Shown one piece after another: positions 7,321-43,385 of a stretch of 55,512 nucleotides of DNA. The stretch is from an uncultured Eubacteriales bacterium. Its GTDB lineage: Bacteria > Bacillota > Clostridia > Peptostreptococcales > JAAYPU01. A program made the translations under genes and the position numbers. Location of the stretch: positions 1 to 55,512 of the forward strand of contig CAYSBC010000004.1 of the NCBI GenBank assembly GCA_964429195.1, read 5' to 3'. Positions within the stretch are counted from its first letter, which is position 1; each line of letters begins with the position of its first letter. The notes below the pieces were generated by a model. It searched no databases, had not been told where the DNA came from, and saw only the letters and a list, made by a program, of their open reading frames with translations.

Positions 7321-7402
7321 GCAGTAGAAATCTACAAATCTTTGATTTGTAGATTTCTGTGCATAAGATCGCCATCAATTTGTATAGCAAATTGGGCGAG
7401 CT
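7321..7402. repeat. two-hairpin REP/MITE-like element, full copy 1
   Basis: GCAGT-AGAAATCTACAAATC-TTT-GATTTGTAGATTTCT...TCGCC-CAATTTG-TATAG-CAAATTG-GGCGAGCT; colinear with the copy at 12571. Confidence 0.85.
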
Positions 7403-8255
7403 TTAGCATGTCCTCAGGTATTTCAGCAACAATTTCCATTCTCGTCTTCTTCATCGGGTGAATAAAGGATAAATACCGGGCATGAAGAGCTTGTCTTCCG
7501 ATATCTTCATTACCTTTTATACCGTAAAGTGTATCTCCTACTACCGGATGACCTATGGATGCCATATGCACCCTGATTTGATGGGTTCTTCCCGTTAATA
7601 GTGTTATTTCCGCTACAGTGTACTCTGCAAGCCTCTTTAAAACCTTATACTTGGTTATGGATTCCTGCCCATCGGGAGCTATAATTCGTACAATATCTCC
7701 CTCTTCTTTTTTTATAGGCTTATTGATTGTCCCTTCTTCCTCTTCTATTCTTCCTTCTAAAATAGCTATATACTTTTTAACTACTGTATTTTCTTTCATT
7801 TGTGTGGATAATGCTTCTTGCGCAAATGCACTCTTGCCTATGATTAAAAGCCCGGATGTATCTCTATCCAGCCTATTGATAAATCTTATCTTATAAACAT
7901 CTTGCTTTTTGTTCATGTCATGAACCAAACCGTTGGCAATCGTTCCGGTGGGGTGACCCTTTGTAGGATGAACAACGATGCCCGGTTGCTTATCAATAAT
8001 CAATAAATCCTCATCCTCATATACAGTTTGGATTGGAATATCCTCAGGTTCAAAATAGCTGTTTTCACTTGGCAGCACAACTGAAATAACATCTCCCTCC
8101 TTGGGGTAAGTGCTTACATAAACGGACTGTCCATTATTAAAAATGCCATCCGTTCTTTTTAATTTACTTATCAAGCGGCTGGAAATACCCAGTCTCTTTT
8201 TTAATATCTCACTAAGTCTTAGTCCGATATCTTTTTCTTGTATTTTATACTGCAT
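7332..8255 (-). CDS. RluA/RluD-family pseudouridine synthase
   Basis: S4-like N-terminus, catalytic NRLDRDTSG, TGRTHQIRVH. Confidence 0.93.
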   Translation of the reverse strand: MQYKIQEKDIGLRLSEILKKRLGISSRLISKLKRTDGIFNNGQSVYVSTYPKEGDVISVVLPSENSYFEPEDIPIQTVYEDEDLLIIDKQPGIVVHPTKGHPTGTIANGLVHDMNKKQDVYKIRFINRLDRDTSGLLIIGKSAFAQEALSTQMKENTVVKKYIAILEGRIEEEEGTINKPIKKEEGDIVRIIAPDGQESITKYKVLKRLAEYTVAEITLLTGRTHQIRVHMASIGHPVVGDTLYGIKGNEDIGRQALHARYLSFIHPMKKTRMEIVAEIPEDMLKLAQFAIQIDGDLMHRNLQIKDL

Positions 8256-8381
8256 AGTCCCTCCGGTTGTTTTTTTAATAGAAAAGCTGATATATGTTTT
8301 TTTTAAATATTATGCTAAAATTATACCATAATAATGATGATTAGATTATAACGAAATAGAAAAGGATTAAGAGAGGGATAA

Positions 8382-9203
8382 ATGATGATAGATACACCTA
8401 ACAGTAAGATTATTAATGTAGTCTCAAACGATGATTCTTTGTCAGAGGAAATTCGAAGGATTTTAATACAAAAGCTTGAAAAAGCAGGATATCTTGTTCC
8501 CAAAAAATTTGATTATGATGCCATGCTTATTATATGTATAGGTGGAGATGGTGCCTTTTTAAACACTTTGCACACTTATAATTTTCCTGATATACCCTTT
8601 ATCGGTGTCAATACAGGCCACCTGGGTTTTTTCCAGGAGATATTACCTTATCAATTAGACGAGCTCATCTTTAGACTGGAAAAAAACGAATATAAAACTC
8701 AACACCTTAACGCAGTTTCTGCTACTGTTACCTATGGAAATCAGCAGCAACATAATATAACAGCTATGAATGAAATTGTTGTCAGAAGCAGTAAAACCAA
8801 GACTATCCATCTCAACATTTCCCTTAATGATGAATTTTTAGAAAAATTCAGTGGAGATGGTGTTCTTGTTTCCACCTCTCCGGGTAGTACGGCCTACAAC
8901 TATGCCCTTGGGGGAAGCATTGTGGATCCTCGTTTAAAGCTACTGCAAATTACTCCTATTGCCCCTATTAATTCAACTGCTTATCGCTCCTTTACCTCCA
9001 GTGTTATTGTTCCGCCTACAACCAGCGTCAATATCAATCCGGAAAATGCTTTCGAGAATTCCATATCTGTAGCCTATGATGGTATAGAAACAACATTTAA
9101 TAACCTTAAGAAGGTATCTGTTGAACTTTCAGATATCAATATACGTTTGTTAAGGCTTGATTCCTATAATTTTTGGGACAAGGTCAAAAGCAAGTTCTTA
9201 TAA
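8382..9203 (+). CDS. nadK: NAD kinase
   Basis: GGDGAFL, GHLGF, NE motif, GDG..STSPGSTAY. Confidence 0.93.
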   Translation: MMIDTPNSKIINVVSNDDSLSEEIRRILIQKLEKAGYLVPKKFDYDAMLIICIGGDGAFLNTLHTYNFPDIPFIGVNTGHLGFFQEILPYQLDELIFRLEKNEYKTQHLNAVSATVTYGNQQQHNITAMNEIVVRSSKTKTIHLNISLNDEFLEKFSGDGVLVSTSPGSTAYNYALGGSIVDPRLKLLQITPIAPINSTAYRSFTSSVIVPPTTSVNINPENAFENSISVAYDGIETTFNNLKKVSVELSDINIRLLRLDSYNFWDKVKSKFL

Positions 9204-9829
9204 TAAGACTCGGCTTCTCCCTTTGTCCATATACGGGCAATCTGACCGGCTTTTTCAAATTCTAAAGATCCGGTTTTGTGAATATAGGTCCATATATTTT
9301 CTTCAAATAGGTAAGACCTGCCGGATAAAACCTCTTCAATGATGCGATAGTTTTCAGCAAAAAGCTCCTCATAACAGGCTTTAAATTCTTTAAAGTTATG
9401 AGAGCTTTTTTTATAGGTATCTATAGCCATGGCCTTTAATAGCCAATCAAATTCTTTATGAAGCCAGATGCTCATCTTAATGTAATAGGATTTTTTTACA
9501 AAAAGGATTGTTTCAATGTCCTTTGTTACTTTGTAGTCTTGGCAAAAGGTACTGAATAGATTTTGGTTAATCCTGATGTAATCATATTCCTTAAGCTCTT
9601 CCTCTACAAGATCAAAGATTTCTCCTTCATCAATATCCGCAAGATAAGCATCCGGGTCACTTTCTTCCCCGTTCTCGTCTTCTTCTATAAAATCCAGTTT
9701 TTCATTTAATGCGTATAAAATATCAGAGAATAAGGATTTGTTGAACCAAATCCAATTCTCTGATAAATCAAACACTCTTTCTATATTCAATTTGTCTATG
9801 TTGCTCTTTAGAAGTTGCGTTAAATTCAT
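9164..9829 (-). CDS. hypothetical protein
   Basis: 221-aa ORF directly downstream of fabI; 40-bp 3' overlap with nadK. Confidence 0.7.
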   Translation of the reverse strand: MNLTQLLKSNIDKLNIERVFDLSENWIWFNKSLFSDILYALNEKLDFIEEDENGEESDPDAYLADIDEGEIFDLVEEELKEYDYIRINQNLFSTFCQDYKVTKDIETILFVKKSYYIKMSIWLHKEFDWLLKAMAIDTYKKSSHNFKEFKACYEELFAENYRIIEEVLSGRSYLFEENIWTYIHKTGSLEFEKAGQIARIWTKGEAESYYKNLLLTLSQKL

Positions 9830-9839
9830 TTTTTTGACC

Positions 9840-10613
9840 TTACCCTAATATATTGTACCCACAATCCACATAAAGAATTTCTCCTGTGATAGCAGAGCTC
9901 ATGGAACTCAATAAAAATACTGCCGCTTTTCCTATCTCTTCTTGATCTACCGGACGTTTTAAGGGAGCTCTTTCTGCAAAAGCTGATAGCATCTCGTTTA
10001 AATCGGAAACGCCTCTGGCTGAAGCTGTTTTTATAGGTCCTGCTGAAATGGCATTCACTCTTATATCCTCTTTCCCAAGATCTACGGCTAAGTAACGCAC
10101 ACTTGCTTCTAAAGCCGCCTTGGCAACACCCATGACATTGTAATTTTTAACTGCCTTTACACCACCATGATAGGATAGGGTTATAATGGAACCACCTTCT
10201 GTCATTAAAGGTCTAGCATACCTGGAAACAGCCACCAAGGAATAAGCACTTATATCTTGTGCCATGGCATAGCCATCTCGTGATGTGTTGACATATTCGC
10301 CTTCCAATTCTTCTCTCTTAGCATGAGCAATACAGTGTGCAACACCGTGAAGAACACCGAATTCTTCTTTAATCAAATCGAAGGTTTTCTCAATATTCTC
10401 ATCCTGAGTCACATCGCATTCAACAAATTTTACATTTTTAATATTTTCTTCTGTTGTGAGCTTTTCTAAACTCCTTAAGCTTTTATCTCCATAATAGGAG
10501 AACAGTAATTGGGCGCCATTTTGATAGGCCTGCTTTGCAATACCCCAAGCAATGCTCCATTTATTGGCTACACCCATAATCAATATATTTTTATTTTTTA
10601 ACAAATCACTCAT
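9840..10613 (-). CDS. fabI: enoyl-ACP reductase FabI
   Basis: MGVANKWSIAWGIA, YNVMGVAKAALE, NAISAGPIKT; start chosen by RBS. Confidence 0.92.
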   Translation of the reverse strand: MSDLLKNKNILIMGVANKWSIAWGIAKQAYQNGAQLLFSYYGDKSLRSLEKLTTEENIKNVKFVECDVTQDENIEKTFDLIKEEFGVLHGVAHCIAHAKREELEGEYVNTSRDGYAMAQDISAYSLVAVSRYARPLMTEGGSIITLSYHGGVKAVKNYNVMGVAKAALEASVRYLAVDLGKEDIRVNAISAGPIKTASARGVSDLNEMLSAFAERAPLKRPVDQEEIGKAAVFLLSSMSSAITGEILYVDCGYNILG

Positions 10614-10656
10614 GTGAACGACCTCCACCTCATATTAATTATTGCCTCTTGCTATT

Positions 10657-12462
10657 TTACACATATTTCTCAAACTGTTCAACTAAATTACCAAAAGTTT
10701 TCATAGCACTTTCAATAGGTTTCGTTGTTGTCATGTCTACTCCTGCTTTTTGAAGAAGATTGATCGGATAGTCCGAATCCCCTGATTTTAAGAAATCAAT
10801 ATACCTGTTCCTAGCCAAATCTCCCTCATTTAAAATCTGCTTGGAAAGCTCAATGGCTGCAGAATAGCCTGTTGCATATTTGTAGACGTAGAATGCCGAG
10901 TAAAAATGCGGTATTCTCGCCCATTCCATTTTGATTGCATCATCCAGTATGATTTCTTTACCATAGTAGAATTGATTCAACTTTCCATATTCCTCTGAAA
11001 GCCATTCATGGGTAAGGACTTCTCCTGATTCAATGGCTTCATGGGTCATCTTTTCAAATTCAGCAAACATGGTTTGTCTAAAGAGAGTTCCTCGGAATTG
11101 TTCCATAAAATAATTGAGAAGGTACATTTTTTCCCCATTGTCTTTGACATTGGCAATCATATATTCCATTAATAGCGCTTCGTTGACCGTAGAAGCTACT
11201 TCAGCAGTAAAGATAGAATGTCCCCCATAGATATAGGGTTGGGTATGCCGGGTGAAATAGGAATGCATGGAATGTCCCATCTCATGGGCTGTCGTAAAGA
11301 CATCCTTGATGGAGTCCGTATAATTGAGCATAATATAAGGGTCGCTCTCATAGGTTCCAAAAGAGTAAGCCCCGCTGGTTTTCCCTTCATTTTCATAGAC
11401 ATCTATCCATCTTCCCTCGAAGCCTTTGTTCATAATGGTTAAGTACTCATCTCCCATAGGTTTTAATGCTTTTCTTATAATCTCTACGCCCTCTTTATAA
11501 GGTATTTTCTTATCAATCTCTTTCACGATAGGTGTATAAAGGTCATAAAAGTGCAGATCATCTAGCTTCAACATCTTTTTTCTCAGCTTGACATAGCGAT
11601 GCATTAAGTTGATGTGGCTGTGAACTGTTTTAACAAGGTTTTCATAGACACTTAAAGGTATATTATCACCGTGCAAGGCTTGGGCTAATGAAGAGTCGTA
11701 TTTTCGCAGCTTAGCCCCCATAGCATCACCCTTCGTACTATAATTATAAGTTGATGCCAAAGTGTTCTTTTGCTTTTTATAGGCCGAATACAGTGCTTCA
11801 AAAGCCTCCTTACGAACTCGTCTATCTGGTGATTCCATGAAATTAATAAACTTACCGTGGGTTAATTCTATTTCTTCACCATCTTCGTCTGTGATATGAC
11901 CAAATTTGATATCCGCATTATTAATCATTCTGAAAATGCTCTCCGGAGCCGCCATCATTTCTCCAAATTGAGCTATAATGTATTCTTCTTCCTTAGATAG
12001 AATGTGAGGTTTATTTCTTAGAAGGTCCTTTATGAAAAAGTCATAGAGTCTTAAATCCTCATTTTCCTCAAGGAATGCCATCAATTTTTCTTCCGGTATC
12101 CCTAAAAGCTCCGGTGTAAAAAAGGATAACTTCATGCTAATTTCTACGGACAGAGATTGTGCTTTTTCACTCATGGCCTGATATTTCGTTACTCGATTAT
12201 CCTCGTCTTTTTTCATCCTAGCGTAGACATAAATGTTGCCAATTTTTCGAGATAATTCTTCTTTCTTTCTAAAAGCTTCCAGTAAAGTTTCACTGCTTTC
12301 ATGAAGGCGACCTGCATAGGCCTTAACACCTTCTGCCAGTTCTCTGACAATCTGAAAATCCTTCTCCCACATTGCATCCGTCTCATACATTTTGGACAAA
12401 TTCCATTTAAAACTGCTATCTATTTCTTCTCTTTGCTTTAATTTTTTAGATTCGTTAACCAT
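10657..12462 (-). CDS. pepF: oligoendopeptidase F (M3B)
   Basis: HEMGH zinc motif, FTAEVAST, HFYSAFYVYKYATG. Confidence 0.95.
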   Translation of the reverse strand: MVNESKKLKQREEIDSSFKWNLSKMYETDAMWEKDFQIVRELAEGVKAYAGRLHESSETLLEAFRKKEELSRKIGNIYVYARMKKDEDNRVTKYQAMSEKAQSLSVEISMKLSFFTPELLGIPEEKLMAFLEENEDLRLYDFFIKDLLRNKPHILSKEEEYIIAQFGEMMAAPESIFRMINNADIKFGHITDEDGEEIELTHGKFINFMESPDRRVRKEAFEALYSAYKKQKNTLASTYNYSTKGDAMGAKLRKYDSSLAQALHGDNIPLSVYENLVKTVHSHINLMHRYVKLRKKMLKLDDLHFYDLYTPIVKEIDKKIPYKEGVEIIRKALKPMGDEYLTIMNKGFEGRWIDVYENEGKTSGAYSFGTYESDPYIMLNYTDSIKDVFTTAHEMGHSMHSYFTRHTQPYIYGGHSIFTAEVASTVNEALLMEYMIANVKDNGEKMYLLNYFMEQFRGTLFRQTMFAEFEKMTHEAIESGEVLTHEWLSEEYGKLNQFYYGKEIILDDAIKMEWARIPHFYSAFYVYKYATGYSAAIELSKQILNEGDLARNRYIDFLKSGDSDYPINLLQKAGVDMTTTKPIESAMKTFGNLVEQFEKYV

Positions 12463-12570
12463 TATTTCCTCCTACCTTTATTTTTATCTTCTATTCAATA
12501 GTATTTACATTTACCTTCTATTTAATTAATATATATTGTATAACAACAGATTAATAAATACTACATATAA

Positions 12571-12652
12571 GCAGTAGAAATCTACAAATCAAAGATTTGT
12601 GATTTCCTTGCATCAGTTCGCCATCAATTTGTTACACAAATTGGGGCGAGCT
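12571..12652. repeat. two-hairpin REP/MITE-like element, full copy 2
   Basis: GCAGTAGAAATCTACAAATC-AAA-GATTTGTGATTTC...TCGCCATCAATTTG-TTACA-CAAATTG-GGGCGAGCT. Confidence 0.85.
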
Positions 12653-12671
12653 AAGAAATGGAGATGACTTA

Positions 12672-13475
12672 ATGGACAATAGACCCATTGGCTTTTTTGA
12701 TTCGGGATTAGGCGGTTTAACATGTGTAATGCAGTTTATTAAAACCTTTCCACATGAAAAAATAATTTATTTTGGAGATACAGCAAGAACTCCTTATGGG
12801 TCCAAGGCTGTTTCCACCATTGAACGCTTTTCTTTTGAAATAGCTGATTTTTTAATGAGCAAAGATGTCAAAATGCTTGTTATTGCCTGCAACACGATTA
12901 CCTCTACTTGTCTTGATGCCTTGAGAGAAAAATACGCTCACATACCTATCATAGGCATCATTGATCCGGCCGCAAAAAAGGTAGCAGAGACATGTACAAA
13001 GGATAATAGAATAGGGATTATTGGTACAAAGGTGACGATTGAGCATAAGTCCTATATCAAGTCCATACATTCTTATTGCAAGGATTTGAACCTTTATGAC
13101 AAAGCATGTCCCATTTTTGTCCCTTTAATCGAGGAAGGTATTATCGACAATGACATTATGAATTTATCCATAAAGCATTATTTGGATGATTTTACAGAAG
13201 AAAATAAGCTGGATACGCTTGTTTTGGGTTGCACTCATTATCCTCTTATCATGGAAAATATCCGGCGCCTTTATCCCCAAATGCATGTTATCAACCCTTC
13301 AGAGGAAATTGTATCCAGTATCGGCAATACCTTATTATCCATGGATATTCTTTCAGCACAGACGGATTTAGAAAATGAATTTTATGCAAGTGACCTTTCG
13401 GAAAATTTTATTGAGATGATCAGAACAATTTCAAAAAATTCTCTTATTGGCTTTAAGAGCTTTGAAATAGAATAA
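12672..13475 (+). CDS. murI: glutamate racemase
   Basis: FDSGLGG, ACNT and LGCTHY catalytic Cys motifs. Confidence 0.96.
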   Translation: MDNRPIGFFDSGLGGLTCVMQFIKTFPHEKIIYFGDTARTPYGSKAVSTIERFSFEIADFLMSKDVKMLVIACNTITSTCLDALREKYAHIPIIGIIDPAAKKVAETCTKDNRIGIIGTKVTIEHKSYIKSIHSYCKDLNLYDKACPIFVPLIEEGIIDNDIMNLSIKHYLDDFTEENKLDTLVLGCTHYPLIMENIRRLYPQMHVINPSEEIVSSIGNTLLSMDILSAQTDLENEFYASDLSENFIEMIRTISKNSLIGFKSFEIE

Positions 13476-13490
13476 AAAGCTCCTAAGAAA

Positions 13491-13527
13491 AAGGATGCCC
13501 CTTCAATGATAGTTATCGGGCATCCTT
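13491..13527. terminator. bidirectional terminator
   Basis: AAGGATGCCC/GGGCATCCTT between convergent genes. Confidence 0.65.
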
Positions 13528-13546
13528 ACTTTCATTTATTTTGTTT

Positions 13547-14176
13547 TTAATGCAAATAATAATTTTGATTGGAACCTATAGGAACCCCTTCAAAGAAATC
13601 TTTAGAGTTTTTTAAATCGCCGCCTAAATAAGGGGTGTCGCCAAAATCGATTCCATATCGAATCAAGTCTCGCAAATCCTTCAATAGCTTCTCAGGACTA
13701 TCTGAAATTAAGCGAAATTTCATTCTTTTGGCCTTGGCCCCATCCTTATTTTTAAGGAGCATGGTGATGGCTGCGTGAACACTGATCTCATGATGGTTGA
13801 TTCCATCTGTATAATTGACCCTCGAATCAAGCATTAACCATTTGGAAAAGGATTTTAATTCTTTAGCCAGTTCCAATCTGCTCTCATGGGTATTCTTCTC
13901 TAATAATTCCATAATATAAGAGTTGCTATCCACTAAGGCTACCATAATAGAAGGGTCATAATCGATAATCGTATCAATGCACTCATTAAAATATTCCTCA
14001 ACAAGTAATTCAATGTTTTCAATGGATAAGACAATATCCCGAACATCCTCATCTTCTAAACAGTACATATACGATATTAAATTAAAAAATTGCTCTTTTG
14101 TCCTTATTTCTCCATAGCCTGTAACACCTAAAACTTCCTTAAGCTCTTCAATAATTTTATTATCCATTATTCTCAC
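13547..14176 (-). CDS. hypothetical protein (paralogue of 14242-14898)
   Basis: 209-aa ORF with RBS GAGAGGAG. Confidence 0.7.
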   Translation of the reverse strand: MRIMDNKIIEELKEVLGVTGYGEIRTKEQFFNLISYMYCLEDEDVRDIVLSIENIELLVEEYFNECIDTIIDYDPSIMVALVDSNSYIMELLEKNTHESRLELAKELKSFSKWLMLDSRVNYTDGINHHEISVHAAITMLLKNKDGAKAKRMKFRLISDSPEKLLKDLRDLIRYGIDFGDTPYLGGDLKNSKDFFEGVPIGSNQNYYLH

Positions 14177-14241
14177 TCCTCTCTTACCAAGTTCACAGTA
14201 TTAACAAATATCTCACGTCATGGAGTCGCTTTATATCCTTA

Positions 14242-14898
14242 TTATATTTCATCTATAACCGGGTTATCTAAATCAATCAATCCTTGGCTATATTCGTAAT
14301 CATCATCTCTTTCTATATCGTCAAAATCATATGCATCCAATTCCTCTTCCTGATCGTCAAAATCAATATCGTAATCATCGATAGGATAATCTAAAGCATC
14401 CGGATAGATACATTCAAAAGACCCTGATTTTAAATTTTCCAATCGCGTTAACAATAAGCTATCATAGATACTGATGTAGGATTTTGTTTTACTAACCAAG
14501 TCGGTACAAAGCACTAGCTCATTGGCCATAATCCAGGTTTGAAATCTTAGGAGCTCATAGGCTAGAATATCTAAATATTTTTTATCTTTTCCTATGGATG
14601 AAGCTATGCCTAGCAACAAATATTTCACTGTAGAAAATATTTTATACAAATCAATATTATCATTTGCAATACCTGTCATCAAATCCTCAAAATGAAACTC
14701 CAAATATTCTTTAATCTCTCTTAAGCCTTTCGTAAGGAAAATTTCAATTAAAATAGCTTCATTGATAATCTTGTAATTTTCCATAATGGTAGAAAATTGA
14801 TCATAGTACTCAACCTGAGGCCAATCATCAATCTCTAATTCTTTCAGCAATTTATTTTCTTCTAAATTTTTTTCTTTACTTGCCATCCATAACTCCAT
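14242..14898 (-). CDS. hypothetical protein with acidic C-terminal tail
   Basis: 218-aa ORF with a D/E-rich tail. Confidence 0.7.
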   Translation of the reverse strand: MELWMASKEKNLEENKLLKELEIDDWPQVEYYDQFSTIMENYKIINEAILIEIFLTKGLREIKEYLEFHFEDLMTGIANDNIDLYKIFSTVKYLLLGIASSIGKDKKYLDILAYELLRFQTWIMANELVLCTDLVSKTKSYISIYDSLLLTRLENLKSGSFECIYPDALDYPIDDYDIDFDDQEEELDAYDFDDIERDDDYEYSQGLIDLDNPVIDEI

Positions 14899-14979
14899 TT
14901 TTTAAATAAATTCTTTACTAGTAACCTTCTTGCTTTTATTTTATCTTACCCTCTATAATAATCAAGCCCTTTTATTTAA

Positions 14980-15010
14980 AAAAATCACAAATCAAAGATT
15001 TGTGATTTTT
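14980..15010. repeat. REP-like hairpin-only copy 3, just downstream of the RNR stop
   Basis: AAAAATCACAAATC-AAA-GATTTGTGATTTTT perfect palindrome. Confidence 0.8.
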
Positions 15011-15032
15011 AGCAGATTTATCCCGTTGCAGA

Positions 15033-17450: not shown

Positions 17451-17456
17451 ATTTTG

Positions 17457-33567: not shown

Positions 33568-33585
33568 ATCTTCGTTATGTAGAGC

Positions 33586-34088: not shown

Positions 34089-34104
34089 ATTGCATGTTTT
34101 ACTT

Positions 34105-34133
34105 ATCATAACATCTTAATGGATGCTTTGCAA
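34105..34133 (-). promoter_or_regulatory. sigma-A promoter (extended -10)
   Basis: TTGCAA-17-TATGAT with TGn. Confidence 0.6.
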
Positions 34134-34160
34134 TTAACCTCCTTGCATGGATGAGAACCA

Positions 34161-34209
34161 AATAGGACCGTTATAAACAGACTACCTAGTCGTTTACAAC
34201 AGTCCTATT
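34161..34209 (-). terminator. intrinsic terminator
   Basis: AATAGGAC...GTCCTATT long hairpin after the MBL gene. Confidence 0.6.
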
Positions 34210-34227
34210 TTAATAACTATATCATAA

Positions 34228-35196
34228 CTATTTTTTCTTATAATACAAGATACCATTCTCTTCTCTTTCAGCTAAGCGACCTGTCTCACGGAGATGATGA
34301 ATATGAGCCATGGCTTCCCCAGCTGCAAACCACTTTTGAGGATTGGGGAAATCATCCCAGTTCCTAGCCCTAAGATCCCATGTCATTTTCGCAGCGATAT
34401 CTCTTACAGATAATTCTTCATTTTCAACAATCTTAACGACCTCATTTAAACGTTGTTCATGATGTTTGAAAAGTTCATCTATTCTTTCCCTATGATCCTT
34501 TATAAGATAGCGATGGGCCGGAAATAAGGTATGGATATCGTAATCGTATATCTTTTTTAGGCTATCAAAATAGATCTGCAAGATGTCACCATATTCAAAT
34601 CCCCAGAAGGCTATATTCGGCGTTATTTTCCCAAGGATGTGGTCTCCACAAAAATACAGCTTATGCTTTTCTTCATAGAGGTTCACTTGTCCGGGTGTAT
34701 GTCCCGGAACCTCTACCACCTTGAATAAATACTCGCCTACTTGAAACTCATCACCCTCTACTACCGGCTTAAATTTCATGATTTCTTTAGCTTGATATTG
34801 ATAGCCCGGATGCTCATCCAGCTTTACTCCGTCTCTTTCTAAATCAAACCACTTTCTGTGATCATAAAAATAATCCCAACCATGACCTTCAACGGCATCA
34901 TTGACTAAAGTACCATCCATTTCACTGGCGTAGATGGTCACACCCCTTTTGCTCAATCTATCTGCAAGTCCACAATGGTCTGAATGAAGATGAGTGATAA
35001 ACAGGTCAGTTTTGGTTAAATCTATCTTAAGCTCTTCTACAGCCTTCATCAGTACCTCATCACCCTCATCCCTGTCGAAACCTGTATCAATAATCAAATT
35101 TCGGTTGTCTCCTACAATGATATAACAATTCAGTGCCTTTAAAGGATTATTTGGCAAAACAATATCGTAACTATGAATATTCTTATAAAGTTGCAT
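34228..35196 (-). CDS. MBL-fold metallo-hydrolase
   Basis: THLHSDH, PGHTPG, GDH, PAH. Confidence 0.9.
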   Translation of the reverse strand: MQLYKNIHSYDIVLPNNPLKALNCYIIVGDNRNLIIDTGFDRDEGDEVLMKAVEELKIDLTKTDLFITHLHSDHCGLADRLSKRGVTIYASEMDGTLVNDAVEGHGWDYFYDHRKWFDLERDGVKLDEHPGYQYQAKEIMKFKPVVEGDEFQVGEYLFKVVEVPGHTPGQVNLYEEKHKLYFCGDHILGKITPNIAFWGFEYGDILQIYFDSLKKIYDYDIHTLFPAHRYLIKDHRERIDELFKHHEQRLNEVVKIVENEELSVRDIAAKMTWDLRARNWDDFPNPQKWFAAGEAMAHIHHLRETGRLAEREENGILYYKKK

Positions 35197-35378
35197 TTTG
35201 TTCCCCCTCACCTGCTTTTTATTTTTTATGCCGAATTGGCTATGGATATTTAATCTATAGTTTACCCTATTTTCGGGTATTCTAACTTAAAATTGTATAT
35301 TATGACCACTATTTTTGTCAACCCTAAAAACCCTCGAACATTTCGTTCAATATTCTTTATTTTTATGCAAAATTTCCC

Positions 35379-35427
35379 TTGATTTTATGGTTCTTTAGCC
35401 TTATAATAAAGGTCAGGGAAGGTCAAA
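35379..35427 (+). promoter_or_regulatory. sigma-A promoter with CtsR box
   Basis: TTGATT-17-TATAAT then GGTCAGG-GAA-GGTCAAA (RGTCAAA-NAN-RGTCAAA). Confidence 0.75.
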
Positions 35428-35505
35428 TAATTGTTCCTTTTATCAGAAAATTGTTTTTTTATATAAAATATAACCTATAACCATCGTGATAAAGAGGTGA
35501 ACACT

Positions 35506-36459
35506 ATGAAATATACAGATTACTATAAAACTCTTGGTATAAGCAAGGATGCTACACAAGAAGAAATTAAAAAATCTTACAGGCAGCTTGCAAAAAAATA
35601 TCATCCCGATTTAAATAAAGACAGTGGGGCTGAAGAAAAATTCAAAGAGATCAACGAAGCATTTGAAGTATTAGGCGATGCAGAAAAAAGAAAAAAATAT
35701 GATAACTTCGGAAGCTCCGGAAATTTCAGCCAAGGCATGGATTTTGATCCATCACAATTTGGATTTAATACACATCAGGGAGGAACTTATCAATCTACCG
35801 GTGATTTTAGTGATTTCTTTAATATGTTTTTCCAAGGTGCAGATTCACGTGGTTCTTCCTCCTCTTCTTCTTTTAGTTTTGAAGATTTGTTTGGAGGCAG
35901 TACCAAGCATAGCCGTAAAAAACCCCAGGATGTCAAGGGTGCAGATGCAGAAGCATCTGTATTCATCGGTATAGAAGAGGCCTACAAAGGTGTAAAGAAA
36001 TCTTATACCATCAACACAGGCTCGGGAAAACAATCTATTTCGGTTACTATTCCTAAAGGAATCATGCCGGGGCAAAAAGTTAAAATTAAGGGACAAGGGA
36101 ATGCCGGTCCTACAGGGATAAAAGGCGATCTTTATTTAGTCATTCAATTTGCTAAGGACGATACTTATTCCATGGAAGGTTTAGATGTCACAAAGGTATT
36201 GGATATATATCCTTGGGAAGCCTACTTTGGAACTAAAACTCAGGTTGAAACTTTTGAAGGTAAGGTTGTTTTGAAAATACCTGAAAAAATCCAATCCGGC
36301 AAAAAGATAAAACTCAAGAATAAAGGGTATAAGAATATCAAAGGTGAAATGGGGGATTTATTCATTCAAATTCGTATCATGAACCCGACTTCCATGGATA
36401 AATCCACAGAAAAGCTTTATAAAGAGCTACAGGAAAATTACGATAAAACCAAAAAATAA
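35506..36459 (+). CDS. DnaJ class B / CbpA-like co-chaperone
   Basis: J-domain with HPD, G/F-rich region, no CxxCxGxG zinc finger. Confidence 0.92.
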
Positions 36460-36480
36460 TCAGGAAATGGAGATGATTTT

Positions 36481-39075
36481 ATGAACTATGAAAAATTTAC
36501 TGAAAGTGCTCAGCTCGCAATATCATCATCCTCAGAAATTGCCATTAAAAATGAAAATCAACAAGTGGATGGTGAACACTTACATTTATCCCTGCTCACG
36601 CAACAGAAAAGCTTGATTCCAAAACTCATTGAATTCATGGGTCAAAATCCTAATCTGTTGGCGAATGAAGTTGAAAATCAAATTAAGAAATTGCCTAAGA
36701 TTTATGGAGATAATACATCGCTATATAGCTCAAGAAGGCTTAATAAGCTGTTATTGGACGCTGAAGGTATTGCTCAGAAATTCAAGGATGAATATGTGAG
36801 TGTCGAGCATCTTTATCTTGCTCTTTTGGAGGAAAACAATACGCCTTCTTCTAAAATATTAAAAGACTTTCATATTACAAAAGAAGCATTTTTAGATGCT
36901 CTCAACAAGGTAAGAGGAAATCAAAGAATTACAAATCAAAACCCTGAGGATAGCTATGAGGTATTGGAAAAGTACGGAAGAGATTTAGTCGAGCTTGCCC
37001 GCCAAGGGAAATTAGATCCGGTTATTGGGAGAGACTCAGAGATAAGACATACTATTCAAATCTTATCCCGTCGTACGAAAAATAATCCGGTGCTGATTGG
37101 AGAACCGGGTGTAGGTAAAACGGCTATTGCTGAAGGTTTAGCTCAAAGAATTCTCAATGGTGACGTACCCGAAGGCCTAAAGGACAAAACCATATTTGCC
37201 CTGGATATGGGTTCCCTCATTGCAGGAGCTAAATATAGAGGTGAGTTTGAAGAAAGGCTTAAAGCAGTTTTAACTGAAATAGAAAAATCCGAAGGAAAGA
37301 TTATATTGTTCATTGACGAAATACACAATATCGTCGGTGCCGGTAAAGCAGAAGGTTCTATGGATGCGGGAAACATTCTTAAGCCAAAATTAGCTCGTGG
37401 AGAGCTCCACTGTATTGGCGCTACAACCTTGGATGAATACCGCAAATACATCGAAAAGGACGCTGCCCTTGAAAGACGTTTCCAAAAGGTCATGGTGCAT
37501 CAACCTAATGTGGAAGATACCATCTCCATCCTTCGTGGCTTGAAAGAAAGATTTGAGATTCACCATGGTGTCCGAATTACAGACGATGCTTTGATTGCTT
37601 GTGCCGTTTTATCCGATCGCTATATCAGTGATCGCTTCTTACCGGATAAAGCTATCGACCTGATGGATGAAGCAGCTTCTTTTATTCGTATCGAAATCGA
37701 CAGCATGCCTAGTGAAATTGATGATATAAGCAGAAGAATTATGCAGCTTGAAATTGAACAGCAAGCACTCCATAAAGAGGATAGCGAATCTGCAAAAGGC
37801 AGGCTCGCTGATTTAAGCAAAGAAATATCGGAGCTTAAAGAGCAGGAAACTCTCTTAAAAACAAAATGGCAAAGTGAAAAACAAGCCATCGAAAATGTGA
37901 AAAATATTAAACAGGCTATTGAAGATGTGAAGCACGATATTGAAGAAGCCGAAAGAAGATATGATCTGGAAAAGTTAGCCCAGCTAAAGTATGGTAAACT
38001 CCCTGAGCTTGAAAAGCAATTAAAGGAGAAACAAGAGGTTGAAAGCCATCAGGGCAAAGATGATAGCCCTCTTCTCAAGGAAACCGTTACAGAGGATGTT
38101 ATCGCCACTGTTATTTCAAAGTGGACAGGTATTCCTGTAGCAAAGCTGATGGAAAGTGATAAGGAAAAACTCCTTCGTTTAGAAGATACATTGCATGAAA
38201 GAGTCATCGGTCAGGATGAAGCAGTCACATCTGTTTCTGAAGCAGTCCTCAGGGCAAGGGCAGGTTTAAAGGACCTCAACAGACCCATAGGTTCCTTTAT
38301 CTTCCTAGGACCTACAGGCGTGGGGAAGACAGAATTGGCCAAATCATTATCTGAAGTCCTCTTTGACAGTGAAAGCAATATGATTCGTATCGATATGTCC
38401 GAATATATGGAAAAACACTCCGTATCCAGATTAGTCGGTGCCCCTCCGGGCTATGTGGGCTATGATGAAGGCGGTCAGTTAACAGAAGCTGTAAGGAGAA
38501 AACCTTATAGCGTTATCCTCTTTGATGAAATTGAAAAGGCCCATCCTGACGTATTCAATATACTCCTTCAATTGCTGGATGATGGCAGACTTACAGATAA
38601 CCAAGGAAGAACTGTGGACTTTAAAAATACGATTGTGATTATGACATCCAACATAGGAAGTCATTATCTCCTATCCGATTTAAGAGAAAAGGGGAAAATT
38701 TCCGATGAGACAAAAGAAAAAGTGTATGCGGATCTTAGCCTCCATTTCAGACCGGAATTTTTAAACAGAATTGATGAAACGGTTATGTTCTTACCTCTTA
38801 CAAAAGACCAGCTTTTCGAGATTATCAAGATCTCCATGAAGCAACTAGAAAAACGCTTACTCGAAAAGAACATTACATTGACGCTCACTGACTCAGCTGT
38901 GAACTTAATTGCTGAAGAATCCTATTCACCGATTTATGGAGCAAGACCGGTTAAAAGGTATTTGCAAAAGCATGTTGAAACACTTCTTGCTACTAAAATT
39001 ATCAAGGGTGAAGTAGAAGAAAACAGTCATGTAACCATTGACGAAGCTGACGGACAACTGATTGTTGCCCCATAA
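36481..39075 (+). CDS. clpB: ClpB disaggregase
   Basis: Two AAA+ modules ([16 protein letters not shown]) with a long coiled-coil M domain. Confidence 0.96.
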
Positions 39076-39101
39076 GCTCTATACTACTCCAGATTAAAAT
39101 G

Positions 39102-39148
39102 GGGCTGTGCCTCCGGCATTATCCATGCCGGGTCACAGCCCTACTTTA
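39102..39148. terminator. terminator between clpB and the site-2 protease gene
   Basis: GGGCTGTG..CCGGCAT/ATGCCGG..CACAGCCC. Confidence 0.65.
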
Positions 39149-39179
39149 TTTTTGATATGCTTTCTTTCACAGGATTCTT

Positions 39180-39809
39180 CTATAATATCGCCTCAACCAA
39201 GAAATTAAACATCCATTGTACAGGAGGTATAAGAACATATCTTGAAGCACCTGTTATCACAAAGATTAATAAGAGGATAGGTCCTTTATCATAAAACTGA
39301 TAATGAATTCCCTTTTTTCTGAAATTCAATAGTCCTGATAAAATATGGTATCCGTCTAGGGGAGGAATAGGAATCAGATTAAAAACCATCAATATGAGAT
39401 TAATCCAAATCGTATTCCAAATCATGGATAAAATGATTTGACCCAAATTGCTTGCAAAAAACGTCATTTGAAAGACATAAATGACTTTGAGAACAAATAT
39501 AAACAAGATGGCAATGATAAAATTTGTCATAGGACCCGCCAGAGAAACAATCATGCCTTCCCTGCTTGGATTTTTAAAATTATTTTCATTGACAGGCACA
39601 GGCTTTCCCCAACCGAAACGAGCTACCAGTAACATAATGAATCCTAAAACGTCAATGTGTGCCCGAGGATCTATCGTTAATCGTCCTAATCTCCTGGCTG
39701 TATCATCCCCTAGCATGTCGGCAGCCTTAGCATGGGCATATTCATGTAGCGAAAAGCCTATAATAAATCCCGGTATGACGAGTAATATATCGATTATAGC
39801 ATTATTCAT
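39180..39809 (-). CDS. site-2 (M50) metalloprotease
   Basis: HEYAH, AGP, NLIPIPPLDG. Confidence 0.92.
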   Translation of the reverse strand: MNNAIIDILLVIPGFIIGFSLHEYAHAKAADMLGDDTARRLGRLTIDPRAHIDVLGFIMLLVARFGWGKPVPVNENNFKNPSREGMIVSLAGPMTNFIIAILFIFVLKVIYVFQMTFFASNLGQIILSMIWNTIWINLILMVFNLIPIPPLDGYHILSGLLNFRKKGIHYQFYDKGPILLLIFVITGASRYVLIPPVQWMFNFLVEAIL

Positions 39810-39819
39810 TATTTTGCTC

Positions 39820-41088
39820 CTATTCCTTTAACAATTTTGGGGTATCCTTGACGGATAGGATATAATCTATAAATTGTCTTGCCGTTCTACCCGATCTTCC
39901 ATGATATCTGATTTCCCATTTTAGCGCTTCCTCGAAAAGCTTTTCTTGATCCATTTTTATATTTTCTTTTTGAGCTAAGTCTTCTACAATGCGTAAGTAC
40001 AAATCCTTATTAGGAGACTGAAATGTTATGGTTATTCCAAATCGATCTGCTAAGGACAGCTTTTCTTGTACAGCGTCATTACGGTGTAAATCATCCATGC
40101 CTTCCGGTTGATCCTTCCAGCTTTCTTTTATAATATGTCTCCTGTTGGAGGTCGCATAGATGACAACATGCTCTGGTCTTACTTCTATTCCACCTTCTAA
40201 GATAGCTTTAAAGTACTTGTATTCTACCTCAAAATCTTCGAAAGATAAATCATCAATAAAAATGATAAACTTATAGCCTCTCTTGTTAATCTGATCCATA
40301 AGAGCCGGAAATTTTGAAAATTGTTCTTTTGTTAATTCAATTATTTTTAACTTTTTATGGCTATACTCATTGAGAACGGCTTTGACCAAAGAGGACTTTC
40401 CCGTACCCTTGTCACCATAAAGCAGAATATTATTGACCCTATGACCTCGAATAAGCTTTTCTGTATTTTCTAGAAGGGTATTCTTTTGAAGCTGATAGCC
40501 TATAAGATCCTGACACCTTATAGGATCTACATTGGAAATACCAATTAACCCCTTATCATCATCCCATTTAAAGGCAATGTACTCTCTAAAAATACCACAG
40601 CCCTTTTCCCTGTAGGCTTTCTCTAGCTCCTCTATAGCCTTGTCATCCACGATACCTTCTTTTCCAAAAATATTATTCATGATGATGGTATCTTCATCAT
40701 TATGAGGCTCCCTGCACAGGATTGAAGTTTCTGTATCACCCATTTCACAGGATAATCGATGCCAATCAACATTGTAAAGCTCTTTTAAAATACAAAGATC
40801 ATTTTTGACTAAATTCCGAAGGTCATCTGTATTGCCATCTATTTCACTTAATAAACTAAAGGTATTTTCATTCTTAAGAATAATATCCATAATATGCGAT
40901 TTCCAGCATATGTTGAACTTTTCCGGATACATTTTCAATAACAGGTATTGTATCCTAAAATAATTTTCTTCTATTTCGGCACTTTCTCGGTGCTTATTCA
41001 TTTTCCATAATTCATGAGCACTTTTAACAATTTCATCATGAAGAATATCCCGATAGAGTATCAACTTTTCTAATGAAGGCCTTTCCAT
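39820..41088 (-). CDS. DUF815-like AAA+ ATPase
   Basis: GDKGTGKSS, FIIFIDD, YATSNRRH, SGRTARQF. Confidence 0.88.
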   Translation of the reverse strand: MERPSLEKLILYRDILHDEIVKSAHELWKMNKHRESAEIEENYFRIQYLLLKMYPEKFNICWKSHIMDIILKNENTFSLLSEIDGNTDDLRNLVKNDLCILKELYNVDWHRLSCEMGDTETSILCREPHNDEDTIIMNNIFGKEGIVDDKAIEELEKAYREKGCGIFREYIAFKWDDDKGLIGISNVDPIRCQDLIGYQLQKNTLLENTEKLIRGHRVNNILLYGDKGTGKSSLVKAVLNEYSHKKLKIIELTKEQFSKFPALMDQINKRGYKFIIFIDDLSFEDFEVEYKYFKAILEGGIEVRPEHVVIYATSNRRHIIKESWKDQPEGMDDLHRNDAVQEKLSLADRFGITITFQSPNKDLYLRIVEDLAQKENIKMDQEKLFEEALKWEIRYHGRSGRTARQFIDYILSVKDTPKLLKE

Positions 41089-41172
41089 ATTTTAATCCTT
41101 TCCATTTTACAAAATTAAAAGAGCTGTAACAAAAAAACAGAAAAGATGTTACAGCCCCTTTTTCACAATCCT

Positions 41173-42414
41173 TTATTTATATACAGGATATTTGGTACAT
41201 ATTTCTTTGATAATAGCTTCTGTCTTAGACTTATAAGCTGTATCATCTTTATGATTAATCACATAATCGATGGCCTCAGCTATTTTTTCAAAATCCTCTT
41301 CTTTAAGCCCCCTTGTAGTCATAGCAGGGGTACCCAATCTTATGCCACTCGTAACAAATGGTCCCTTAGGGTCATTAGGTATGGTGTTTTTATTTGTTGT
41401 TATACCAACGTCATCAAGGTTTTTTTCTACTTCTTTTCCAGTTAAATTTTTCTTGGATAGGTCAATGAGCACAAGGTGATTATCTGTGCCACCTGAGACT
41501 AAATCGAAGCCTCTGTCTAGGAGAGCATCCGCTAATGCTTTTGCATTTTTTACAATCTGTTCTTGATATTTTTTGAATTCATCTGTCAATGCTTCTTTAA
41601 AGCAAACTGCTTTTCCTGCAATGACATGCATAAGGGGTCCGCCTTGTATGCCGGGGAAAATAGCCTTATCAATTTGTTGAGCAAATTCGCTCTTGCAAAG
41701 TATAGCCCCACCCCTTGGTCCTCTTAAAGTCTTATGGGTTGTTGTTGTGACAAAATGTGCATGTTCACATGGATTAGGATGTAACCCTGCAGCTACCAAT
41801 CCTGCAAAGTGGGCCATATCCACCATTAAGTAAGCTCCTACTTCGTCTGCTATTTCCCTGAATCTTTGGCTATCAATGATTCGAGGATAGGCACTGGCAC
41901 CGGCAACAATCAGCTTAGGCTTAAACTCTAAAGCTATTTTTCTTACTTCGTCATAATCAATCATTTGTGTTTTGGAGTTGACGCCATAAGGTACAAAATT
42001 ATAATATTTGCCTGACATATTGACCGGGCTTCCATGAGTTAAATGCCCACCATTGCTGAGGTCCATACCCATGACTGTGTCACCGGGTTTTAATACAGCG
42101 AAGTATACTCCAAAGTTAGCATTGGTTCCCGAATGGGGTTGCACATTGGCGTGCTCCGCATTGAATACCTTCTTTAATCTCTCTCTTGCCAATTCTTCGG
42201 CTATATCAACAAATTCGCATCCACCGTAATATCGTTTTCCTGGGTATCCTTCTGCATATTTGTTTGTCATGGAGCTTCCAACAGCTTCCATAACAGCACG
42301 GCTTGTAAAGTTTTCAGATGCTATCAGCTCTATTTTATTTTCTTGCCTATCCATCTCTTTGCGGATTGCATTTGCTATCTCGCTATCAACTTTATCTAAA
42401 TAGTTAAAATACAT
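41173..42414 (-). CDS. glyA: serine hydroxymethyltransferase
   Basis: [33 protein letters not shown]. Confidence 0.97.
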
Positions 42415-42449
42415 CTTATTCATCCTTTCATCGTTAAGCTTCATGATTT

Positions 42450-42478
42450 ATTATAGTGTTAAAATTGTAGCATTTCAA
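42450..42478 (-). promoter_or_regulatory. sigma-A promoter of glyA
   Basis: TTGAAA-17-TATAAT. Confidence 0.75.
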
Positions 42479-42530
42479 CTGAAAAAGTTAAATAAGTTGT
42501 CTTTTATTCTTTTTATGTGGTGCTGCTAGC

Positions 42531-42777
42531 GGGGGTGGCGCGGGACTGCTTTATTTGCCATCACTGTTTGCTACATGATCCGCACCCCCAAATGTGCAAA
42601 ATATGGAGTTATGTGTGGATTATAAAGCGATTATACATAATATTCATATCATATAAGCATTATGTTGTATTTTTATGCATCATTTCCACACACAACTCCA
42701 TATTTTGCACACGGGACTGCATCAAATCTGAAAGAGGATGGATGATGGCAAACAAAGCGGTTCCAGTGCCACCTTTT
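42531..42777. repeat. nested inverted repeat (~34-bp outer arms, 27-bp inner arms, 65-bp AT-rich core)
   Basis: 42531-42563 pairs with 42743-42777; 42593-42619 pairs with 42685-42711 with one mismatch. Confidence 0.9.
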
Positions 42778-42849
42778 CATAACTAATTTAATATTCTTTC
42801 AAATAATGTGTTTTATTTCTTTATTTTGGGGTACATATATACTATAATA

Positions 42850-42900
42850 GCAGTAGAAAAATAGTAGAAATCTACAAATCGAAGATTTGTGATATCAGCG
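42850..42900. repeat. REP-like copy 4 (first hairpin, with local AGTAGAAA duplication)
   Basis: GCAGTAGAAAAATAGTAGAAATCTACAAATC-GAA-GATTTGTGATATC. Confidence 0.8.
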
Positions 42901-42933
42901 TAGATGTATATTTATCAGACTGGAGGAATAAGA

Positions 42934-43371
42934 GTGGAACAACAGGGTATAGTCATCGAGATAACGGATCCAACAAATGCCAAGGTTGTCATTGATAAGC
43001 ATGCTGCATGCGGAAACTGCGGAAAATGCCAAGAAGGTAAAAAAAACACTGTTATCATGTCTGCAAAAAATGACCTTGATGCAAAATGTGGGGATCTTGT
43101 AGAAGTTTCAATGCATACGCGACATGTTTTAACAGCTGCAGTCATCATGTACCTTTTCCCACTTATCTTACTCTTGATAGGTATATTTATAGGTAATAAG
43201 CTATTCCAAGGTTCAAACAAGGAAATACTATCCATCCTGCTAGGTTTTATTTTTTTAGCACTATCTTATTTTATGATAAGAACAAGAGAAAAGTCTTTTT
43301 CTAAAGATGAAGATTATGAACCTATTATAACTAAAATCATCAGTCATAATCATCAAATCGAAGATTTATGA
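42934..43371 (+). CDS. RseC/MucC (SoxR-reducing system) family protein
   Basis: ACGNCGKC, A.CGDLVEV, two C-terminal TMs; RBS GGAGGA + GTG. Confidence 0.85.
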   Translation: MEQQGIVIEITDPTNAKVVIDKHAACGNCGKCQEGKKNTVIMSAKNDLDAKCGDLVEVSMHTRHVLTAAVIMYLFPLILLLIGIFIGNKLFQGSNKEILSILLGFIFLALSYFMIRTREKSFSKDEDYEPIITKIISHNHQIEDL

Positions 43372-43385
43372 GAAGATTTGATATC
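43348..43385. repeat. degenerate REP-like copy 5 overlapping the rseC stop
   Basis: AATCATCAAATCGAAGATTTATGAGAAGATTTGATATC versus copy 4 AATCTACAAATCGAAGATTTGTGATATC. Confidence 0.55.

Follow-up and report, generated by a model that had tools for sequence, protein, structure and literature searches.

A probable non-autonomous, REP/BIME-like family of two-hairpin repeats in Anaerovoracaceae, with copies before Shine-Dalgarno sequences

The repetitive extragenic palindromes (REPs) and bacterial interspersed mosaic elements (BIMEs) of Proteobacteria have been described together with RAYTs (tyrosine transposases associated with REPs, also TnpA-REP), which are nucleases (PMC3733652, PMC6006769, PMC3116915). 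What marks out a canonical REP is its hairpin foot, which carries a 5' GT[AG]G (PMC6006769), and the RAYT cleaves at GTAG (PMC3733652). REPs are found mostly downstream of genes, GTAG repeats have been surveyed in Proteobacteria, Cyanobacteria, Chloroflexi and the Planctomycetes-Verrucomicrobia-Chlamydiae (PVC) group, and miniature inverted-repeat transposable elements (MITEs) and effects on mRNA are noted in the same source (PMC3733652). The mechanism of TnpA, the single-tyrosine (Y1) histidine-hydrophobic-histidine (HUH) transposase of IS200/IS605, is summarised in PMC6006769. Small structured repeats, well studied in Proteobacteria, have barely been studied in anaerobic Firmicutes. The present analysis concerns a stretch of 55,512 nucleotides from an uncultured Eubacteriales bacterium of the Peptostreptococcales/Anaerovoracaceae that comes from landfill and digester metagenomes (contig CAYSBC010000004.1 of assembly GCA_964429195.1), called the window below, which probably holds a previously undescribed, non-coding and non-autonomous family of REP/BIME-like repeats of about 85-88 nt, made of two hairpins and with copies retained before Shine-Dalgarno sequences. 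The element, termed class A, is repeated DNA that has been multiplied, rearranged and nested within genomes, and the best reading of the family is that it is old and common to many Anaerovoracaceae (Peptostreptococcales) genomes.

Architecture, copies and spread of the class A element

The consensus of the 85-88-nt element reads GCAGTAGAAATCTACAAATC-nnn-GATTTGTGATTTCCTTGCATAAGTTCGCCnACAATTTGC-nnn-GCAAATTGGGCGAGCTAnTA and is composed, from 5' to 3', of a GCA-GTAG foot, a first hairpin (P1), a CATAAG linker, a second hairpin (P2) and a CTAnTA tail. P1 is a hairpin of about 17 bp with a bulged T in its 5' arm and spans 36-42 nt overall with its internal loop, its pairing being kept in 95-96% of cells. 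P2 has about 16 bp, a 2-nt bulge in its 5' arm and, at its base, a fixed T.G pair that is kept in 65 of 66 copies. The linker and the tail are conserved though unpaired. As RNA, the sense strand has a fold some 5 kcal/mol more stable than that of the antisense strand. GTAG was found at the foot of P1 in 37 of the 66 copies and GT[AG]G in 42, with only 8 of 25 in an independently ascertained set; the third base of this foot covaries with the opposite strand.

The 66 copies keep 95.8% of cells paired and 17 of the 33 pairs show changes on both sides, values reached by none of 500 shuffles, with the caveat that cell counts overstate independent events and that part of the covariation is sub-family structure. 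For instance, all JAQUUY and CAZKCB copies carry the CTATTTG/CAAATAG and ACC/GGT variants. When the structure is slid by 1-3 columns, just 31-45% of cells pair. The first scan had fixed the apex of P1, and P1 was therefore tested on copies ascertained through P2; in these, 6 of its 17 pairs show compensatory changes, such as ACAAATC/GATTTGT to ACGAATC/GATTCGT or to GCAAATC/GATTTGC.

A covariance model was built from the 66 copies and then run on the window. Two full copies, both on the plus strand, were recovered by direct reading, repeat detection and this model: copy 1 at 7321-7406 (87.8 bits, E=5e-20 over 7319-7410) and copy 2 at 12571-12655 (100.2 bits, E=4e-23 over 12569-12660). Two further copies consist of hairpin 1 only. 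Copy 3 at 14976-15014 on the minus strand was found by direct reading and by the model (30.0 bits on the minus and 25.8 on the plus strand, 14952-15017), and copy 4 at 42850-42900 on the plus strand by all three approaches (30.8 bits over 42859-42918). The core ACAAATC-N3-GATTTGT, at up to 2 mismatches, occurs 6 times in the window for 0.48 expected, a count that none of 100 shuffles reaches, and 4 of the 6 matches are exact; the hairpin-2 pattern matches twice for 0.00 expected. In repeat detection the window copies form families D1-D3.

Folding sets the full copies well apart from shuffled sequence (z of -7.8 to -8.7). Copy 1 reaches -38.3 kcal/mol (z=-7.8), and copy 2 folds at -36.1 kcal/mol (z=-8.7) in the sense strand vs -31.1 in the opposite one. 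In copy 1, P1 is a perfect 16-bp hairpin because an extra A pairs the usually bulged T, and it is followed by the CATAAG linker, P2 and an atypical tail, CTTTAG. Copy 3 (-13.4 kcal/mol, z=-7.5) is a perfect 14-bp palindrome without the bulged T, flanked on both sides by A/T runs. Copy 4 has a z of only -1.9; its head is partly duplicated (GCAGTAGAAAAATAGTAGAAATC...) and the similarity to the family stops 6 nt past the hairpin. An initial annotation, made from the sequence alone, had placed the full and partial copies correctly and had also been right that loops vary while stems are kept, including the base absent from copy 3. Its count of five copies holds for the two full and the two hairpin-1-only copies. 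The fifth, at 43348-43371 on the plus strand, at the rseC stop and thioredoxin start, is a decayed hairpin-1 fragment and not a structured copy, since it matches the core of copy 4 at 21 of 24 bases (88%, family D2) and folds no better than shuffles (z=-0.68); the model gives it 9.1 bits (E=3.5, 43341-43402). The density in the window thus amounts to 2 full and 2 partial copies in 55 kb.

The wider family was collected by pattern scans of public collections, namely species-representative genomes and metagenome contigs. The exact hairpin-1 pattern occurs at a minimum of 112 loci of the species-representative genomes. Among the matches listed, about 85 from some 25 Anaerovoracaceae-type genomes are family members and about 30 are chance matches in unrelated phyla; 70-odd of these 85 are full two-hairpin elements, the others being class B elements (see below), hairpin 1 only, or cut by the end of the locus. 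Some carrier genomes bear other labels, such as Oscillospiraceae or Eubacteriales. The count is no lower than 14 loci for each of two metagenome-assembled genomes (MAGs) and at least 4 for the cultured Sinanaerobacter chloroacetimidivorans BAD-6, which makes experiments feasible; a MAG of Anaerovorax odorimutans is also a carrier. When the linker and the 5' arm of P2 were used as the anchor instead, another scan yielded 53 further metagenome loci, from landfill, digester and sediment, and brought the listed genome matches and metagenome loci to 106 distinct full copies. The element is not confined to a single lineage, as had been supposed; some 25 genomes of the family, counted at species level, share it.

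One landfill metagenome contains 96% of the sampled words of the stretch, and in it the summed contig depth is 1313 over the element vs 7 over its flanks, that is about 190x, and contigs break at 12571 and 12645, exactly at the element borders. Such repeats break metagenome assemblies of the Anaerovoracaceae group, whose contigs end inside them. No copies were found in PLSDB plasmids, GenBank phages or IMG/VR, and the element thus appears chromosomal. Rfam gave no match over the element at E up to 10, its only hit being a T-box elsewhere in the window, and literature string searches on the core sequence returned nothing relevant. Among the chance matches, four archaeal MAG loci (L010, L056, L080 and L101; three from Woesearchaeota YT2_088 and one from Euryarchaeota SM23-78) share a different repeat, AAATCAACAAATCTnnGATTTGTTGGTCCATCAAAC...GTTTGATGAAATC, which may be a separate hairpin repeat family.

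Borders, nesting and altered gene ends

Both borders of class A are sharp. On the left, the G of GCAG marks a step in information content from less than 0.6 to more than 1.3 bits, and on the right it drops past the A of CTAnTA. No inverted repeat is formed by the two ends, GCAGTAGA... and ...GAGCTAGTA, and neither terminal inverted repeats (TIRs) nor a target duplication were found in the border analysis or at the nested insertion of locus L068. The left flank stays at or below 0.53 bits at every position, with no conserved tetra- or pentanucleotide target, and information in the right flank falls past +3, except for a G at +7. A conserved flanking tetranucleotide, which IS200/IS605 elements require, is lacking at these borders.

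One rearrangement is seen in L068, where an element of a sister class, class B, is split precisely at the border of its linker and hairpin 2 by a class A unit (junction ...GGCCTAAAT|A|TCTGTC...), with an intact class B copy 30 nt away. Class B, of which 17 copies were found in the sampled loci, shares the hairpin-1 core and has its own foot (ACGA in place of GTAG), linker, hairpin 2 and tail, according to the pattern GACGAyGAAAATCTACAAATC-nnn-GATTTGTGATTTTCCAGCCTAAATTCTGTC...GACAGAATGTTAA. It occurs in L068 (3553-4200), L005 (1690-1900), L019 (915-1100) and L131 (minus strand), and forms head-to-tail arrays in which 2-3 units run right up to a Shine-Dalgarno sequence. Within L068 it fills the ssb-rpsR and rpsR-DUF2232 spacers, antisense to those genes.

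Foreign modules were also observed inside class A. Module D, about 105 nt with two hairpins (GAACGGAAGAATTCC...GGAATTCCCGTATGGCACCTACC..ACATTTGC...GCAAATGTGGTTAGGTGCGTAA), sits within the P2 loop with identical junctions at no fewer than 9 loci, among them L126, L131, L137, L138, L141, L143, L152 and, on the minus strand, L068; it stands alone once (L057, 3970-4110). The composite of class A and module D has itself multiplied. Module E measures about 85 nt, and TTTGCC..CAGCT..AGCTG..GGCAAA and GTTCCG..CGGAAC are examples of its hairpins; it was found in the P1 loop in L117, L124, L129, L139, L140 and L144 and in the linker in L147. These different positions in different copies agree with insertion and not with growth of an RNA domain. 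Since classes A and B and modules D and E enter each other's loops and linkers, they could show by which rules a putative strand-specific enzyme inserts them.

Head-to-tail arrays are common. At one orthologous locus from two metagenomes, 3 vs 2 tandem 85-nt units are present (L115, 8840-9104, vs L121, 3160-3340), and the first base of the array completes the TAG stop of the upstream gene. Hairpin-1-only remnants were seen in several genomes. A fixed breakpoint of such half elements at the border between linker and P2 was considered and rejected, the breakpoints varying at 5, 6, 9, 11, 11, 16, 17 and 19 nt.

Some copies have changed the ends of genes, so that these repeats create spurious or altered open reading frame (ORF) ends. 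Copy 1 lies antisense within the 3' end of an RluA/RluD-family pseudouridine synthase gene (7332-8255, minus strand; Pfam PF00849), whose last 22 or so codons (AQFAIQIDGDLMHRNLQIKDL*) and stop are the antisense reading of the copy, the stop being the element's TAG. The closest RluD homologues (53-65% identity) align to only 90-96% of the query and, except for one with a longer tail, stop 3-8 residues past the conserved P-x-DM-x-x-L motif. The window protein runs 21 residues beyond the homologue ends, and these extra residues are the reverse reading of copy 1. Judged from this alignment, replacement of the RluD C-terminus by the antisense copy is the evident reading. The fragment at 43348-43371, for its part, supplies the RseC ending ...HQIEDL*. 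The end of RseC (...HNHQIEDL*, 43335-43371, plus-strand reading of the fragment) and that of RluD (...HRNLQIKDL*, 7332-7364, minus-strand reading of copy 1) are alike in two unrelated proteins because hairpin 1 is nearly palindromic. Finally, copy 3 lies 18 nt past the stop of a class II ribonucleotide reductase gene (nrdJ-type). Since its minus strand reads as a hairpin followed by UUUUUUU, the reductase gene probably now uses it as its intrinsic terminator; it was not flagged in a terminator scan, its stem having fewer than the 3 G-C pairs which that scan demands.

Placement relative to genes and possible explanations

Neighbours were judged from open frames filling the 270-nt flanks. The 3' end of the element faces a gene start in 54 cases and a gene end in 19, a bias present in the genome set (36:11) as well as in the independent metagenome set (18:8), and the 5' end shows no preference (33 vs 30). 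Spacers between divergent genes are commoner than those between convergent genes (11 vs 4). A distance of 16-23 nt from P2 (...GAGCT) to the start codon was measured in 30 of 106 copies; this sharp peak persists where the upstream spacer measures 130-300 nt, and arrays of two units account for a second peak at 104-111 nt. Such a placement is unlike that of REPs, and the orientation toward gene starts with its fixed spacing had not been noticed in the initial annotation. About one quarter of the copies are antisense, at 3' ends or within an ORF. Class B also adjoins the ribosome-binding site, its end (...GACAGAATGTTAA) being followed at once by AGGAGG in most arrays. By inspection only, one copy (L148) ends 1-3 nt before the 5' end of an apparent tRNA gene and another abuts the apparent CCA end of a convergent tRNA gene.

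Copy 2 illustrates this arrangement in the window. It lies in the pepF/murI divergent region, in the 5' leader of and sense with murI (glutamate racemase; 12672-13475, plus strand; Pfam PF01177), the Shine-Dalgarno GGAGA starts 5 nt past its tail, and the murI ATG (12672) follows 19 nt past ...GAGCT. The same arrangement is found on an independent ENA contig (L001). Promoter-like hexamers are present upstream of the copy (12504-12537), at a level not above chance. Copy 4 is likewise sense, in the rseC leader. Elsewhere, the genes downstream, named by eye from their N-termini, are unrelated housekeeping genes (guaB, metK, leuS, metG, trpS, nusA, dnaX, purC, hpt, carD and rplI), so that the element is not a metabolite sensor; murI was identified by Pfam. 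The element precedes guaB in two species, and the same energy-coupling factor (ECF) transporter S-component gene, also named by eye from its N-terminus, is preceded by class A in one species and by class B in another. Three candidate features were tried and rejected. The Shine-Dalgarno sequence is not part of the element, as conservation ends after CTAnTA and copies with no following gene have none. The sequence TTGnnn-16-TAnTAT of P2 and the tail matches an outward promoter weakly, and a start about 7 nt further on would fall in or past the Shine-Dalgarno sequence. A replication-strand bias like that of IS608 was not found, the bias being weak (42 vs 31).

These data are probably best accommodated by an element that spreads, or once spread, without encoding its own enzyme, and whose copies would persist for the most part in sense orientation within transcribed leaders and between cistrons, where the 3' end touches the Shine-Dalgarno sequence of the gene that follows. 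In these places the sense RNA is predicted to fold as two stable hairpins. As a working model, these may form an mRNA end-protecting or insulating module: the A/U-rich linker may be cleaved, and the upstream RNA would be capped by P1, the downstream cistron by P2. The placement before gene starts with its fixed spacing suggests that the RNA is under a constraint or has a role, and docking before the Shine-Dalgarno sequence may reflect selection for, or tolerance of, an mRNA-end-capping RNA module, or else an insertion preference. If functional, the fixed position before the ribosome-binding site of core genes would make the element a mobile determinant of mRNA processing, stability or translation. 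In a further-reaching version, which seems quite unlikely, it would be a mobile, self-spreading 'expression cassette': the module would dock 5' of the Shine-Dalgarno sequence (once of a tRNA 5' end), either by targeting purine-rich sites or by being retained only there, its linker would be cleaved by RNase Y, RNase III or itself, P1 would protect the upstream 3' end and P2 would serve as 5' stabiliser and insulator. If true, this would be a transposable analogue of synthetic ribozyme/hairpin insulators.

The most serious rival puts function first. Class A would then be a cis-acting RNA of general use in 5' leaders or between cistrons, for instance a site of RNase processing with a 5' stabiliser hairpin, a translation insulator or a novel self-cleaving RNA, with each copy kept by selection and multiplicity secondary. 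The orientation toward gene starts in two independently ascertained sets, the start-codon peak shared in kind with class B and indifferent to a long upstream spacer, and the L148 copy beside the apparent tRNA all speak for it, as do the strand-specific features that are kept (T.G pair, bulges and CATAAG linker), the greater stability of the sense RNA, the identity of about 80% between genomes with copy lineages intermixed across species, and the recurrence before guaB and the ECF S-component gene. It accounts poorly for downstream genes that share no common function, for the quarter of copies in other contexts, for head-to-tail arrays polymorphic in copy number, and for the same foreign modules at different positions, which expansion of an RNA domain would not give. 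Moreover, beyond the fixed T.G pair, G.U pairs are no commoner than A.C mismatches, the stem sequence is conserved far beyond the needs of an RNA fold, and Rfam holds no match. On this balance an element that is first and foremost a cis-acting RNA is considered rather unlikely.

Two simpler explanations fare much worse. Ordinary intrinsic terminators or attenuators that share sequence by chance would fit copy 3, with its 14-bp hairpin and seven U after the nrdJ-type gene; they are nevertheless very improbable for the family, as neither hairpin of the full copies is followed by a U-tract and the terminator scan called none of them, as most copies lie upstream of genes right before the ribosome-binding site, where a terminator would silence the gene, and as a separate canonical terminator follows the element in L087, L057, L095 and L022. 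It is just as improbable that hairpin 1 is a double-stranded operator, a 7-3-7 palindrome for a dimeric global transcription factor, even though ACAAATC-N3-GATTTGT is perfect, strongly conserved and promoter-proximal and AATCACA-like heptads in its arms recall omega-repressor sites, a resemblance only (PMC9499535). The arms change in a compensatory way, with A-T replaced by G-C at two positions and with G.T wobbles, rather than drifting separately toward a half-site consensus, the conserved one-sided bulge breaks the dyad, a second unrelated hairpin is always present in fixed order, and copies also lie in ORFs, at 3' ends and in tandem arrays. The many further copies, the depth, the nesting, the arrays and the remnants agree with the dispersed, structure-conserving repeat of the initial annotation, as opposed to terminators or an operator.

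Several observations nevertheless weigh against a non-autonomous mobile repeat. No clean empty vs filled site was found at any orthologous locus examined, and it is nesting, arrays and remnants that carry the case for mobility: the synteny of L020 with L114 stops at the element, contigs of four metagenomes hold no form that skips copy 2, and the RluD homologues, at up to 65% identity, are too distant for such a comparison. Identity is 0.85 within genomes vs 0.80 between, and copies cluster only weakly by genome, the tree showing 46 label changes where shuffled labels give 50.1 (as few in 13 of 1000 shuffles). None of the copies compared are identical, which speaks against a recent burst. Weak clustering and an identity of about 80% across a bacterial family also fit selection on each copy, and the sense bias and fixed start-codon spacing are unexpected for a purely selfish REP. 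None of the RNA runs searched contained the window locus or a Sinanaerobacter locus. Lastly, no RAYT or TnpA belonging to the family was found over the window and 114 loci, 79 of them family loci, a screen that leaves 53 metagenome loci unscreened and would miss a distant single-copy gene.

This search used tblastn with IS200 TnpA and Escherichia coli RAYT queries, an HUH...Y regular expression, all-against-all clustering of 520 flanking ORFs and Pfam on recurrent ORFs. The window has no transposase by tblastn or motif scan, as the initial annotation had said, and the hairpin-flanked RAYT/TnpA gene which it envisaged did not appear beside the sampled loci (window and 79 family loci). Recurrent neighbours are ordinary genes, for ABC transporters, kinases and similar. 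The sole transposase match is a frameshifted IS200 in L030 whose ends are unrelated to the element; its IS200-type TnpA gene (2694-3148, minus strand), interrupted near the 3' end, has 67% identity to the IS200 TnpA query. The single-strand irregularities, the lack of TIRs and target-site duplications (TSDs) and the GTAG foot suggest an enzyme that reads a folded single strand. That such an enzyme is encoded elsewhere is put forward tentatively, as possible, with a Y1-HUH/RAYT-type nuclease as the leading, unproven candidate.

Other features of the window and the loci are of separate interest. Pfam identified an RluA-family synthase, NAD kinase, PepF, MurI, class II ribonucleotide reductase, serine hydroxymethyltransferase (SHMT), RseC, thioredoxin and cardiolipin synthase in the window, and so supports the RluA-family, MurI, ribonucleotide reductase and RseC assignments made at the outset. 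The T-box leader (6643-6860, minus strand, 125.9 bits) lies upstream of a ketol-acid reductoisomerase-like gene (5510-6511), after which an acetolactate synthase-like gene comes (Pfam, applied to contig L001, which matches the window). Shortly before copy 4, the segment 42593-42711 of the divergent spacer between glyA and rseC holds inverted repeat arms of 27 nt, 96% complementary and 65 nt apart, whose sequence is unrelated to the two-hairpin family. In L020, a dimethylamine methyltransferase (PF09505; 489-1892, minus strand) is split into frames of 352 and 97 aa. Such a split is expected for an in-frame amber (pyrrolysine) codon, and this Anaerovoracaceae MAG thus probably uses pyrrolysine, to judge from the frames.

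Comparison with known repeat systems

The REP/BIME systems are the nearest relatives in kind. Common to both are short imperfect hairpins with mispairs, a consensus 5' GTAG foot, many dispersed intergenic copies, several related classes per genome in a mosaic modular arrangement, the absence of TIRs and target duplications, occasional insertion in gene ends and, presumably, transcription within mRNAs. The host of the two-hairpin family is, by contrast, a low-GC Firmicute family, and a GTAG-footed REP-like element would thus occur in a phylum absent from the list of the main REP survey (PMC3733652). Its unit consists of two different hairpins in fixed order instead of a single hairpin or an inverted REP doublet (REPIN), its arrays are head-to-tail only, class A faces gene starts (54 vs 19) and prefers divergent to convergent spacers (11 vs 4), one sequence is common to a whole bacterial family, and no RAYT was seen near the sampled loci. 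The initial description as REP-like finds partial agreement in the GTAG foot (37 of 66 copies, 8 of 25 in the independently ascertained set) and fails for the placement and for inverted REPIN pairs, which were never seen among the copies.

Palindrome-associated transposable elements (PATEs), the non-autonomous derivatives of IS200/IS605, resemble class A in having a structured hairpin near each end, with subterminal hairpins in place of TIRs or a TSD and strand-specific irregularities such as the bulged T and the T.G pair. Class A departs from them in that neither of its ends has a conserved 4-5-nt target, its two hairpins are unlike each other, and its replication-strand bias is weak (42 vs 31). 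MITEs of the TIR type (Correia, RUP and similar) differ in having the TIRs and target-site duplication that class A lacks.

Pneumococcal BOX, Neisseria Correia and enterobacterial ERIC (enterobacterial repetitive intergenic consensus) elements are modular small repeats in transcribed spacers near genes, and their stable RNA hairpins can alter processing and stability. Class A is comparable in its modular and composite make-up, its location in spacers near genes and its stable hairpins. BOX, Correia and ERIC have terminal inverted repeats, to which Correia adds a TA duplication, whereas class A has no TIRs and docks at a fixed distance before the Shine-Dalgarno sequence, which is not known of any of the three. 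In Firmicutes, leaders that combine processing and stabilisation are represented by cggR-gapA, which is cleaved by RNase Y, and by 5' stem-loop stabilisers. The likeness here concerns the proposed mode only, an A/U-rich single-stranded site between hairpins that would leave a hairpin at the new 5' end before a strong ribosome-binding site. Those leaders are features of single loci, whereas class A is a multicopy family.

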